Source of the DNA: a virus
DNA length: 64,000 bases
Virus record (IMG/VR): IMGVR_UViG_3300042691_021876
Coordinates: 42,535 to 106,534 of that record
Direction: 5' to 3' (one strand)
Positions within the stretch are counted from its first letter, which is position 1, and each line of letters begins with the position of its first letter. Position numbers: made by a program. Below are positions 36,001 to 64,000 of this stretch, piece after piece.

Positions 36001-39000
36001 TATAAAGCATAGTTTCTGAAGTTGGTATCAATCTGTCTGGAGATAGGTAAAGGATAAATTTTAGATTTTGCCATTTAAGTACAAGTATTTATGATTATAT
36101 TCTCGAGTGGGTAATTAGTTTTTGGAAACAAAAAAGGAACTCGAAATTAATCGGTTCCTTTTGTAAATGATATGTTTAAAAGATTAGTCTTCAGGCAATT
36201 CCTCAACTTCATCTTCTTCTTCGTCTTCATCTTCTTCTTCTTTTTCTTCCTCTTCACCTGCGTCTTTAGCAGCATCATCAGCAACTTCTTCAGTTTCTTC
36301 TTCAGTTTCTTCAGCAGGAGCATCTTCTGTTGCGTCAGCGGCAGCATCAGTTTCAGCAGCAGCTATTTTTGCAGCTTCAGGATTTTCTTCTTTGTCGGTT
36401 TCAGCACCAGCATCGGTGTTTACATCCTCTACATCTGTTGTAGTTTCAGTGTCCTCAGTATCTACATTCTGTTTTACTAAATCTTCCTTAACAAATGCCT
36501 CAAACGTTTTTAAATGTTTCATTGTTATCTTGGTTTTTATTTTTATTTTAAAGTAAGTAAATACTTAAGTTGTTGAACGTCGGCAATAATCTCATCTTTG
36601 ATGTTAGCCAATTCAGAATCTTGTTCTGCCATGAAAGCATCAACAAAAAATTCTTCAACAGATTTTAAGAAAGCATCTATTTTAATACTATCATAATCAG
36701 CAAGTGTAAATTCTGTTGCTCCACCTAATCTTGGTCTTTGGTATTTACCGCTGTAAACTTCAATTAAACGGTCAAACTTATCACCTAATGATTCATACGT
36801 TCTGTCAAAGGCATTATGTTCTGCAAATGACTCAGTCTGCCAGTGTAAAATTTTTATCTGTGCTGAAATTTGCAATACATTTAATAAAAGTTCTTTTTCC
36901 ATTTTTATATTCTATTTTGATATTTGGTATATATCACAAGAATAATTCCTAGATTGTGCCCTCAAGCCAGCGTTTTCTTTTTGTAGAGTTTGCGCCGAAA
37001 GCAATATCAATAAATTTAGCAGCAGAACGATCTTGTCGGATTCTGAACATTTGTCTTTCAGACATAACCACTTCCCAATCTTGTATACTTAAAGATCCTA
37101 AACCTTTTAAGTAACGAACTCCTTTATAAGCTGTGCCGCTTTGTTCAAAGGCTGCCCATTCTTGTAATGAATAAAAGTATTTTCTTTTTCCACTTACCTC
37201 AGCAGAAACAAGCGGAGTAATTAAAATGTTAAGTTTATTTTGTTCTATGACTTGTGGAAACCACTTATAAAACAAGTTAATCACTAATGAAGCAATGTGC
37301 CCAATACCATCGGGGTCCCAATCAGTAGAAATAGCAATATTTGCAAATGAACATTTGCTGCCATCACGAGGATCAAGATTCAAAATATTCATCAAGTCAA
37401 CAATTTCATTATTAGAGGATAAGTCAGAAATAGACCGAGCATTTTTAATCTTACCTTTAAGTGAATAGACTGCATCAATTCTCGGATCTCTCTTTTGTAA
37501 AATAGATCCCATAGCTGAACTTCCTTCCACTATAAATAGTGTTCCTTTAGATTGTGAAGGCGGAAAGTACTTATCAGATATTTTTTTAGCAGCGGCTTTC
37601 TTTTTTGCTTTAAGAGCATTCATATCAGCCTTTAAGTTTCTTTCATCAATTTTCTTTTTGACGATTTCATAAAAAGTTGATCTTAAAATAGCCGGTCTTA
37701 ATTTCTTAAAGAAATCTTTTTCAAGAGTTTGTTGTATTTCCCAACGGCCACCAGCATACTTAGTTTTGTTTTGGTCTGCAAACCTAACAAGTTTTGCTGG
37801 GAAGTTTAAGATAAGAAGAGTTTCATAAAAGTGATGGGCAGCATTGTACTCAAAGATATCATTAACCCAGTCAGTGAATATCTTTTGATGAATACCTGTA
37901 CATAAAGCACCGTTAATAAATGAAGCACTTGCAGCATTTTCATACTTATCCCAAATTACAAACATACCGTGTTTTCCTGTAAAGGTTAAAGCATTCTCTG
38001 GTAGGAATTGTTGATTAAGATTAAGTTTCTCTCCATCAAACCAAAATTCAATTTCAAGATTTTGTATAACGCCGTCTTGGTTCTTTAAGAACTCGCGGAA
38101 GATAAACATTGTGTGTAAGTATTCTTTATCCCAAGTACATCCTTTAAAGATATCCTTACGAGGAATGTAAGTAACCGTAGTTCCAGTAGCAGTACCACGT
38201 TTCTTCGGTGTAGCATTTTCTGAAACCTTAACAAACTTATTCCAAGTTATATCATATTGGATTTCTGGGTTAATAGTAGTGATTGTGAATTCATCAGAAA
38301 GCATATTCACTAAAGCAGCACCTACACCGTTAGTTCCAATTAAGCTATCTGAAGAATCTTCATTATAAAAATTTGAACCAGCTCTTAACATTGACATTGC
38401 TGTCTCTACGTTACTGGATTTCGTTTTAGAATTGATTTTTTCAGCATTAATAAATCCGCCGCCTGTATCAGTTACAGTTACTCCATTAGTTTTGGAGTCA
38501 ATCTTAACAATGATTTTAGGCATTGCGCCTTTCATTCTTTTTGCCTCATCAAAGGCATTGTCTACAATTTCATTTAGCATCTTATAGAATCCGACAGAGA
38601 ATATCTTATTCTTTTCTATAAGTTTTCCGTCTTCAACAATTTGTACTTTTTCTTCAGTTTTTTCGACTGAACCGATATACATGGTAGGACGATGTATTAC
38701 GTGCTCGAAGTCGGATAGCGCTACGATTTCCTTATTAGACGTTTGTTCTTTTTTTGCTTTTGCCATAGTTACCTTTAGATGACTTTATTTTAATGTATAA
38801 GTATTATATTAATAAGAATAAAAAAGTTCTGTAGAATTTATCTACAGAACTTGTATGTTGGTATAATGTTTTGGTTTATGTTAAAATTCTACAGTAAACG
38901 CAAGTTGCTCATTTGAAACTACAACGTCTTTTGCACGGCTAAATGCTTTTGTAATTGCAACTTTACCTGCATCATAAACAGCGGTTTTTTCTGGCTCAGA

Positions 39001-63000: not shown

Positions 63001-64000
63001 GTGATTAGCTTTTATAGCAATGTACCCAGTGCCAGGACCGCTTGTTCTTTTAACTATTCCTACGGTAATAGCTGATATTTTGCTTTTACCAATTCCGCCT
63101 TCTTTAATTAGTAAAGTAATAGTTTGATAATCACGAACCCCTCTTGCTTGTCCTTTATTAGTAACAGTAGCTGGTGAACTCATTGCATTATACCCATTTG
63201 GCTCTACACTCTCAACAGCTGAAAGAATTTTAGCAGGCAAGCCTTTTTCTACATATCCAAGAATCTCACGAGAAATTGCATTTGGGTTTCCGTTTGAGTC
63301 ATTAAACTTTAAACCTTCATTAACTAAAGATTCTGTAAGATTACCTTCTCTGTCCAGTGCATCAGAAAAGAAAAATGTTCCTTGATTAAGTCTACCTTCT
63401 TGGTCTGTTCTTCCTACATACTCTTTAGTTTTCGGATTCCAATAATGAGTAACTCCGTCTGGCGCTGACATATGTTTTAGTTTACCATTCCTTGCGTTAT
63501 TCATTAGAGTACGAGCAATTTCAACTGTTATCTTTACTCTATTAGTTAGTTTTGACTTATCAACTGCTGCCAATGCCTCATTAAGAGATTCATCAACATA
63601 GTTAATTATCTTAATGATTGAATTAGGATAGTCTTTCATTGCATCAAGATCATGTGGTACAAAGAATTCTTCCCCATCTTTCTTTCTAACGTTATTCCAA
63701 ACTCTCTTAAGAGTAAAACCTTTTTTGGTATTACTTATAACTCGAGATACTTCTCCAACATTAGGTCCATCAGCAATGTAGTCACCGGGTGCAATATCAT
63801 CCCACTCAACGTTCTGTGTCTTATACTTGTTTTGCGTTCTATTATATGATTCGTTTACGAATTGGTCAAATGTAGGTATATGTTTCATTATTTAATTGCT
63901 GCTTTAATTAGTTTCTCAAACACTGAGCTAAAGTCTCCTTTAGGAGTTACTTTAAGTGGTTTCTTGTCTGACATAATGTTTTTGTTAATCCAATTGAAGT

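Follow-up and report, generated by a model that had tools for sequence, protein, structure and literature searches.

A recurrent N-terminal leader on unrelated jumbo-phage proteins as a candidate T4-type capsid-targeting propeptide

The leader and the genes that carry it

The stretch of DNA analyzed here (the window, 64,000 nucleotides) is the right-hand 64 kb, positions 42,535 to 106,534, of the linear 106,534-base IMG/VR contig IMGVR_UViG_3300042691_021876, for which CheckV gives a completeness of 37%. The minus strand carries all genes. Sixteen of them encode proteins that start with a version of the same leader, M-K-H/Y-I/V-K-T/L-F/Y-E-x-F/Y-I/L/V-N-E, and continue into different bodies. 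These sixteen starts had been pointed out in a sequence-only reading of the window, and every one of them coincides with a real open reading frame (ORF) start on the minus strand that bears the motif. The tagged genes are given below in window coordinates, with a slash at the putative cleavage position and pI standing for isoelectric point.

62854..63888, minus strand: 344 residues, MKHIPTFDQFVNE/S; no assigned body
62167..62850, minus strand: 227 residues, MKYVKTYESFLLTE, Glu one residue late; no assigned body
61274..62047, minus strand: 257 residues from the ATG at 62047, MKYVKTFENFIYE/N; no assigned body
60101..60682, minus strand: 193 residues, MKHVKTYEDYIFE/N; homolog in the complete relative G009
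59221..60099, minus strand: 292 residues, MKHVKTYENFLNE/K; C-terminal PAP2-superfamily phosphatase domain (PF01569, 1.8e-7)
56364..57464, minus strand: 366 residues, GTG start, degenerate VTNLHTYESFLNE/A; weakly ATP-grasp (D-Ala-D-Ala ligase)-like (PF07478, 0.0052; PDB 5d8d, 0.016)
55072..55308, minus strand: 78 residues, truncated leader MDFATFESFISE/R; RATATATA box 56 nucleotides upstream
54573..54956, minus strand: 127 residues, MKHIKLFEDFIND-INE/AE; phrog_2859 (1.6e-10), weakly RegB-like (PF10715, 0.0014)
54178..54570, minus strand: 130 residues, MKYIKLFEQFINE/S; weakly RNA 2'-phosphotransferase (Tpt1/KptA, ADP-ribosyltransferase fold)-like (phrog_5470, 1.8e-5)
53276..54160, minus strand: 294 residues, MKYIKLFEQFINE/S; Pol-beta-superfamily nucleotidyltransferase (GSAGKK...SGDIDIAV)
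51030..51371, minus strand: 113 residues, MSHIYSFEEFINE/A; basic (pI 9.6), heads a three-gene tagged array; RATATATA box 122 nucleotides upstream
50319..51026, minus strand: 235 residues, MKHIQTYENFIAE/S; internal AVNE (residues 21 and 105) and FLNE (168)
49479..50291, minus strand: 270 residues, MKHIKLYEDFINE/A; no assigned body
47362..48132, minus strand: 256 residues, TTG start, (M)KYIKTFESYVKE/G; C-terminal phosphoribosyltransferase domain (PF00156, 1.6e-8)
38881..39753, minus strand: 290 residues, MKHFKTFESFVNE/K, then YLNE/R; RATATATA box 31 nucleotides upstream
36184..36522, minus strand: 112 residues, MKHLKTFEAFVKE/D; extremely acidic tail (pI 4.1)

For the gene at 61274..62047, the longest ORF begins 9 nucleotides further upstream, at 62056. 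Fourteen of the sixteen leaders fit the strict protein pattern, and the two degenerate ones are that of the GTG-start gene at 57464, which reads VTNLHTYESFLNE, and that at 55308, which is shortened to MDFATFESFISE. When all six frames of the 106,534-base contig were scanned, the strict motif appeared at tagged ORF starts only, between window positions 36184 and 63888, so that leader occurrences are confined to the last 27 kb of the contig. A partial DNA pattern of the leader had nine matches in the window, where 0.05 were expected from 100 shuffles. The leader motif is far beyond chance and is N-terminal only.

Positions 7 and 10 of the leader are F/Y in all sixteen window copies, as they are in all 150 copies from relatives; this count and the other carrier figures derived from IMG/VR (49 records, 162 or 150 leader copies, 151 proteins) are among the matches listed. 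Position 11 is I/L/V in 16 of the 16 window copies. Of the 14 canonical copies, 13 have Glu at position 13, and so does the copy with the GTG start at 57464, while the copy at 54956 has Asp there, directly followed by I-N-E-A-E, which puts its next cleavage-type site three residues on. In the copy at 62850 the Glu is moved one residue later, and in the one at 55308 the equivalent Glu is residue 12. Every window copy contains an [I/L/V]-x-E sequence, which is like a cleavage site of the T4 prohead protease gp21 by sequence only, and the residue after the leader Glu (P1') is Ala, Ser, or Gly in 97 of 150 copies.

To separate a conserved peptide from a conserved DNA element, codons were analyzed in 162 distinct leader copies from related contigs. 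Synonymous codons vary at every degenerate position (Ile4: ATT 73, ATA 37, ATC 12; Leu6: CTA 65, TTA 59; Phe10: TTT 97, TTC 57; Asn12: AAT 107, AAC 55). The window leaders follow the codon usage of the genome except at Ile4, which is always ATA, and their DNA copies are 65–83% identical to each other, one duplicate excepted. Because synonymous codons vary and leader DNA copies diverge, selection acts on the leader peptide, and a pure DNA-element explanation was rejected on the synonymous variation. The 55/57-nucleotide duplicate (54111-54167 and 54521-54577) spans, in two neighboring genes that are otherwise unrelated, the spacer plus 17 codons of the leader, and it is likely a recombination point for exchanging cargo bodies; in the T4 record, ipII and ipIII share identical leader DNA. 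The DNA upstream of the leaders is A-rich and without a Shine-Dalgarno sequence, with A at position -3 in 79% of copies.

Stripped of their first 14 residues, the sixteen bodies show no pairwise BLASTP match at E ≤ 0.01. This agrees with the earlier view of them as mutually unrelated, and it rules out a paralog family as the origin of the shared N-termini. Clustering by sequence divides the 151 distinct tagged proteins sampled into 108 clusters, so the same tag appears to sit on unrelated, quickly exchanging bodies, as in the capsid-targeting sequence (CTS) system of T4 type. For nine of the sixteen bodies, no match was found in Pfam, PHROGs, or PDB sequences (for one, nor in the Atlas). Among the cargo labels given in the sequence-only reading, phosphoribosyltransferase, PAP2 phosphatase, Pol-beta nucleotidyltransferase, and acidic protein stand; ADP-ribosyltransferase-like (PHROG 1.8e-5) and ATP-grasp (Pfam 0.005, PDB 0.016) are weak matches, as is the RegB-like assignment at 54956; and nothing in Pfam or PHROGs backs "Cys-protease-like" or "winged helix-turn-helix".

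The nucleotidyltransferase has a GS...DxD motif and Foldseek matches to Pol lambda/beta and Cid1, and 250 metagenomic homologs retain the leader, with K5, F7, and E13 invariant; a Lak-phage homolog starts without it. In the AlphaFold model of the 294-residue protein, residues 1–14 have a predicted local distance difference test score (pLDDT) below 50 and are not packed on the body. The comparison and the model suggest that the leader is a detachable, portable add-on.

A weakly hydrophobic window was seen in one of the sixteen bodies (50291) and no other membrane-like segment in the set; the PAP2 protein has no transmembrane segment. More broadly, a transmembrane-like segment occurs in 1 of the 151 tagged proteins versus 29 of 322 untagged proteins of G009 and the window contig (P = 1.6e-4). 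The bodies also contain 12 internal [ILVM]-N-E sequences, where 3.3 are expected from the contig's other proteins (3.6-fold, P = 1.5e-4). The protein at 62854..63888 has ESLNE/A (residue 102) and SLVNE/G (residue 189), which may divide it into modules, and that at 60101..60682 has a second site, IFLNE/S, at residues 20–24. Some cargo bodies with such sites look like polyproteins. The acidic protein at 36184..36522 is similar in composition to T4 gp67 and to the tagged acidic protein found beside the portal gene in relatives, with clear homology to neither.

Other genes lie among the tagged ones. Two untagged minus-strand genes belong to the ferritin superfamily (60682-61251, PF00210, 2.9e-16; 36543-36902, Dps-like, phrog_858, 7e-15). 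An untagged 550-residue gene in the cargo block (57569-59221, minus strand) matches phrog_3545, 13163, and 18802 (virion structural or baseplate-wedge) over residues 345–525. An alanine dehydrogenase/PNT-family gene (55308-56360, minus strand; PF05222, PF01262) is the next gene downstream of the tagged ATP-grasp-like one at 56364-57464, with which it may form a small biosynthetic pair. The tagged gene at 38881..39753 is flanked by topoisomerase II and NAD-ligase genes. A family-B DNA polymerase is encoded by two minus-strand genes about 12 kb apart, the N-terminal part at 45261-46649 (phrog_2062/262) and the C-terminal part at 32071-33252 (phrog_1918/262), with ribonucleotide reductase (RNR), ligase, topoisomerase, and tagged genes between them.

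Carriers of the leader, their head genes and promoter boxes

A degenerate DNA pattern for the strict leader matched at least 120 IMG/VR stretches and had no match among 185,579 bacterial and archaeal species, each represented by one genome. The 49 larger carriers listed are all jumbo-phage fragments (CheckV 12–87%, implying ~250–330 kb) or complete genomes, the latter being G009 (256 kb, with terminal repeats) and G002 (482 kb). From these matches, the tag appears to be restricted to a clade of uncultured jumbo phages of about 250–480 kb. In G009, which is syntenic with the window contig over ~45 kb, 12 genes have the strict leader and about two dozen a looser form of it. A T4-type portal (PF07230) was found in 24 of the 49 carriers listed, both complete ones included, and an S77 prohead protease (46 bits) and a Gp23-family capsid gene (3.8e-43) were found in relatives. 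The window has a portal gene as well:

18913..20532, minus strand: T4 gp20-type portal gene

This gene places the phage in the T4-like head-assembly lineage; protease and capsid genes do not follow it in the contig. The GenBank portals nearest to it are those of the uncultured huge phage LR756500.1 (49% identity), Lak phages, Tenacibaculum phage PTm1, Sphingomonas phage PAU, and Chryseobacterium phages. The hosts of the clade are probably Bacteroidota. Megablast with the region as query had no match among 50,697 phage records. A full-text literature search for the leader strings gave none either, and no description of the leader was found in the CTS and jumbo-phage literature searched.

To link the leader to head assembly, the portal regions of 20 relatives were inspected. 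A leader variant, an S77 protease, and a Gp23-type capsid gene occur together in about 15 of them, and in G009 and most of the 20 the portal gene is followed, in this order, by genes for a small acidic protein with the leader, the S77 protease, and the Gp23 capsid protein. This acidic protein is 112–134 residues long and starts with leader variants such as MKIIKTFEDFITE, MKYVKLFEQFIKE, and MKHVKLFEEFLSE; it occupies the position of the T4 prohead core proteins gp67/gp68 and has an acidic tail as in gp67. In some relatives, an additional tagged ORF is inserted in the head module, and in G002 the capsid and protease genes lie 50 kb from the portal.

The protease of the clade is 576–734 residues long. 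Its S77 domain, with D-H-P and I-S-S-R-A-A-G motifs, is followed directly by an invariant R-V-N-E-[AS]-[FY]-G-F. The C-terminal region contains tandem 14-residue repeats, I-Q-Y-S-E-H-V-A-E-K-x-D-Q-x, of the shape Y-x-E-H/Y-V/I/L-A-E, and the pattern [FYH]-x-x-[FYH]-[ILVM]-x-E occurs 6–13 times per protease at a spacing of 14, 21, or 28 residues. The G009 protease has eight copies of the repeat pattern versus 0.34 expected. The shape of the leader is that of one 14-residue protease repeat. The repeats are heptad-phased and end in V/I/L-A-E, and AlphaFold predicts long helices for the region at a pLDDT of only 50–63; the likeness to a core partner of gp22 type is one of repeat form and predicted helix only. 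In G009 (L143:11569-13383) and 15 relatives, the number of repeats differs in steps of 14 or 28 residues, and the repeats are followed by an acidic low-complexity spacer of very variable length. If the repeat region is a scaffold, this variation in repeat number could be related to head size.

The window contig itself encodes an S77-like protein, outside the window:

Genome 6441-6875, minus strand: stand-alone S77 (T4 gp21)-like ORF of 144 residues (Pfam 26 bits; phrog_207, 4.8e-16)

As a working protease this ORF was rejected, its catalytic Ser-Ser-Arg being replaced by Arg-Pro-Arg, and it is probably an inactive paralog of protease fold. G036 and G015 have a similar 132-residue S77-like copy.

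Candidate promoters were then compared between tagged and virion genes. The sequence RATATATA occurs 56 times on the coding strand versus 15 times on the other, and in the contig it lies 10–60 nucleotides upstream of the sheath, portal, gp15-like, neck, and other virion genes. In G009 it precedes the portal, protease, sheath, and tube genes. The boxes near tagged genes are:

55357..55364, minus strand: RATATATA box (candidate late promoter) upstream of 55308
54195-54202, minus strand: RATATATA box
51486-51493, minus strand: RATATATA box
39777-39784, minus strand: RATATATA box
36928-36935, minus strand: RATATATA box

These boxes precede five tagged units, namely 55308, 54160, the array 51371-51026-50291, 39753, and 36902-36522. 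The earlier statement that many tagged genes sit behind a late-promoter box is hence borne out for five units (about 7–8 of the 16 genes) and not for the remaining genes; no box is visible in the block 63888-57464. As far as it goes, the box pattern would fit late co-expression of the tagged units with the head genes. A second box, TTGGTTAATTTT, precedes 13 other genes (NAD ligase and NAMPT, for example) and no tagged gene. In its longer form, TTGGTTAATTTT(A/G)(A/C)(T/C)(A/C)TAT, it lies on the minus strand 28–42 nucleotides upstream of ~13 genes (NAD ligase, NAMPT-like, and small early-looking genes; e.g., at window 41657, 14447, and 12391) and is often preceded by a hairpin-like GGGATTTTTT. 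It is a candidate for an early or middle promoter class distinct from RATATATA.

Interpretation and competing explanations

We consider it likely that the leader is a T4-type capsid-targeting and cleavage propeptide, which in this jumbo-phage clade would have spread to dozens of exchangeable cargo proteins, enzymes for the most part. The sequence-only reading is supported in part. Its central idea, a portable address and cleavage tag like the T4 CTS, is the best supported of the explanations and gains from the comparative evidence (the tagged core-like protein next to the protease, and the scaffold-like repeats), the match to the T4 CTS determinants, the [ILVM]-N-E enrichment, and the depletion of membrane proteins.

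Imitation of a scaffold repeat is the probable way in which the leader works. Core binding, cutting, a stay in the head, delivery into the cell, and the individual roles of the cargo are what we infer. The leader would form a short amphipathic helix, hydrophobic at positions 4, 7, 10, and 11, that mimics one 14-residue repeat of the helical, scaffold-like C-terminal region of the S77 protease, and through this mimicry the tagged proteins would co-assemble with the prohead core. Once the shell is closed, the protease would cut after the Glu of [I/L/V]-x-E and remove the leader, and in some cargo it would additionally cut internal [ILVM]-N-E joints. The soluble bodies would be kept in the head and reach the cell together with the DNA.

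Several observations weigh against this interpretation. The window contig, at 37% completeness, has no active prohead protease, scaffold, or capsid gene and contributes only the portal and the Ser-less S77 paralog; the link to the protease rests on relatives because the contig has no active protease. The nearest fragments, G024, G026, and G042, gave no Gp23 or S77 match. The conserved N-terminal M-A-N-L-I-N-E-A-E-I of the capsid protein, which is similar to the end of the leader, was considered as a counterpart of the T4 gp23 maturation site (SFLTE/AEI) and rejected: BLASTP places its L-I-N-E-A at gp23 residues 6 onward and not at the Glu65 site, and because it aligns with the extreme N-terminus of gp23, it gives no evidence of cutting. 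No cultured member of the clade is present among the 50,697 phage records, the closest being the uncultured LR756500.1, and a relaxed leader pattern is absent from the distant cultured relatives PTm1, PAU, and Chryseobacterium phage MA9V-1 and from Lak-A1; LR756500.1, with the variant MKYIKEYEEF.., was the sole match in this test. The phosphoribosyltransferase, the nucleotidyltransferase, and the NMNAT-like proteins of relatives are metabolic-type cargo for which a reason for pre-packaging is not obvious. RATATATA precedes RNR-beta too, and the tagged genes lie amid replication and nucleotide-metabolism genes, which makes their late expression less certain. Finally, the leader somewhat over-uses AAA, CAC, and CTA, which hints at an additional effect at the mRNA level; together with the A-rich upstream DNA, this might indicate an added preference in translation initiation, which would fit a Bacteroidota-type host.

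Three other explanations were weighed. In the first, the tag does target the core and is cut, while most of the cargo are assembly or core components that are degraded or expelled like T4 gp22, gp67, and gp68, or that act in the maturing head, and are not injected. One tagged protein has a clear positional analogue, and it does sit at the gp67/gp68 place with a gp67-like acidic tail; the 112-residue acidic protein of the window resembles it in composition, and internal [ILVM]-N-E sites could also signal degradation. However, many bodies are folded catalytic domains (PAP2, phosphoribosyltransferase, Pol-beta nucleotidyltransferase), and the fast turnover (108 clusters in 151 proteins) is like that of T4 internal proteins (IPs) in their arms race with the host (PMC3012670) and unlike that of conserved assembly parts, so that we regard this explanation as unlikely.

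The second would direct the tag to a partner outside the head, that is, a modifying enzyme, a chaperone or protease that times activity, or a localization signal in the infected cell. We find this quite improbable, even though a leader common to unrelated phage proteins can belong to another kind of system, the tagged genes have replication genes as neighbors, and the S77-like paralog is far from any head gene. No enzyme consistently adjoins the tagged genes in the window, the paralog has no catalytic Ser, and the shape of the motif recurs both in the protease repeats and in the protein encoded between portal and protease, besides matching the T4 CTS determinants.

The third, a nucleic-acid element (a Bacteroidota-type initiation region without Shine-Dalgarno sequence, a homology point for cassette shuffling, or both, with the peptide as a by-product), has very little to recommend it: the A-rich upstream DNA with A at -3, the over-used AAA (codons 2 and 5), CAC, and CTA, the 55/57-nucleotide duplicate that brackets one gene, and the identical ipII/ipIII leader DNA of T4 speak for it, but amino acids are kept while codons change (Leu as CTA or TTA) among copies of 65–83% identity, untagged genes initiate without the leader, the motif is also internal as protein repeats of the protease, and the cargo model can accommodate recombination at the leader and is not replaced by it.

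Returning to the capsid-targeting propeptide, we would tentatively extend it as follows, and this larger picture is a possibility that we hold with some reserve. A repeat-mimicking leader, gained by recombination at the leader DNA, would allow any soluble protein to be co-assembled, trimmed, and injected, making, across this abundant aquatic clade, a plug-in system of well over 100 body families, including nucleotide and NAD enzymes and protease-jointed polyproteins, that acts in the first seconds of infection before phage gene expression. If this is true, widespread uncultured giant phages, probably on Bacteroidota of lakes and seas, have an injected proteome far larger and more enzymatic than the three IPs of T4, and one that can be read directly from sequence via the tag. 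It would give a ready list of candidate first-strike proteins for host takeover and anti-defense, most of them of unknown fold. It would also hint at how a CTS works, that of T4 included, namely by imitation of a scaffold repeat, and it would add a second short tag, independent of the first, with which foreign proteins could be loaded into phage capsids.

Comparison with known systems

Packaged and processed head proteins are known from other giant phages. Phages phiKZ, 201phi2-1, and SPN3US pack tens of megadaltons of protein, and their ejection and inner-body proteins are processed by an S77-family protease, with propeptides cut off after Glu. The protease also processes its own C-terminus, and a diverged paralog of it is reported for SPN3US-like giant phages (PMC5694885). 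The phiKZ-type phages differ from the present clade in that their propeptides are mostly >100 residues long without a shared short tag, their cleavage motif is A/S/G-x-E, and their sets of head genes are different; a leader shared by dozens of their unrelated genes has not been described.

Similar in described traits are the "moraphages", uncultured aquatic phages of up to 307 kb with predicted Bacteroidota hosts, which have a T4-like prohead core protease, portal, sheath, gp19, and gp25, as well as split DNA polymerase hits (PMC12619734). They may be the same or an overlapping lineage; the paper that describes them makes no mention of an N-terminal leader or of capsid targeting.

The nearest known counterpart is the T4 CTS. 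In the T4 record, ipII and ipIII start with MKTYQEFIAE and the third gene (IPI) with MKTFKEFIKE. For packaging, the 10 N-terminal residues of IPIII are enough; residues 4 and 7 are the main determinants of targeting and residues 8 and 10 those of processing, and Asp at residue 10 blocks processing and not targeting, while gp21 cleaves after L/I-X-E, as first seen at a Glu-Ala bond (PMC9026906). Leader positions 7, 10, 11, and 13, which are its most conserved, have the residue classes and spacing of CTS positions 4, 7, 8, and 10. In both systems, a short N-terminal propeptide with aromatic, aromatic, aliphatic, and Glu residues at equal spacing heads unrelated, fast-evolving proteins (K-T-F-K-E-F-I-K-E and K-T-Y-Q-E-F-I-A-E in T4, K-T-F-E-x-F-I/V-N/K-E in the phage), and it ends in a gp21-type L/I-x-E, although Val also occurs in the phage leader where the T4 consensus is L/I. 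A T4-type portal, Gp23 capsid protein, and S77 protease are present in relatives from the phage lineage, and T4 and the phage both have neighboring genes with duplicated leader DNA. The putative scaffold-like partner in the clade consists of 14-residue repeats fused to the protease, whereas T4 gp22 is a separate protein; the N-terminus of gp22, MLKEQLIAE, stands to the T4 CTS as the protease repeat stands to the leader.

The leader has 13 residues versus 10 in T4, the three extra ones following M-K. Sixteen tagged genes lie within 28 kb of a partial genome, and the complete relative has about two dozen leader-like N-termini, versus three IPs in T4. Many of the phage bodies are enzymes of 200–370 residues, whereas the T4 IPs are small and basic, and some have internal sites and are polyprotein-like, unlike T4 IPs. 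The ADP-ribosyltransferase Alt of T4 is a head-packaged, injected, gp21-trimmed enzyme, with which the weakly Tpt1/KptA-like tagged protein of the window may be compared; the Alt propeptide (MELITE...) is not a CTS of IP type. The principle of the phage system is familiar from T4, and its scale, its types of cargo, the polyprotein joints, and the mimicry of a scaffold repeat would be new.

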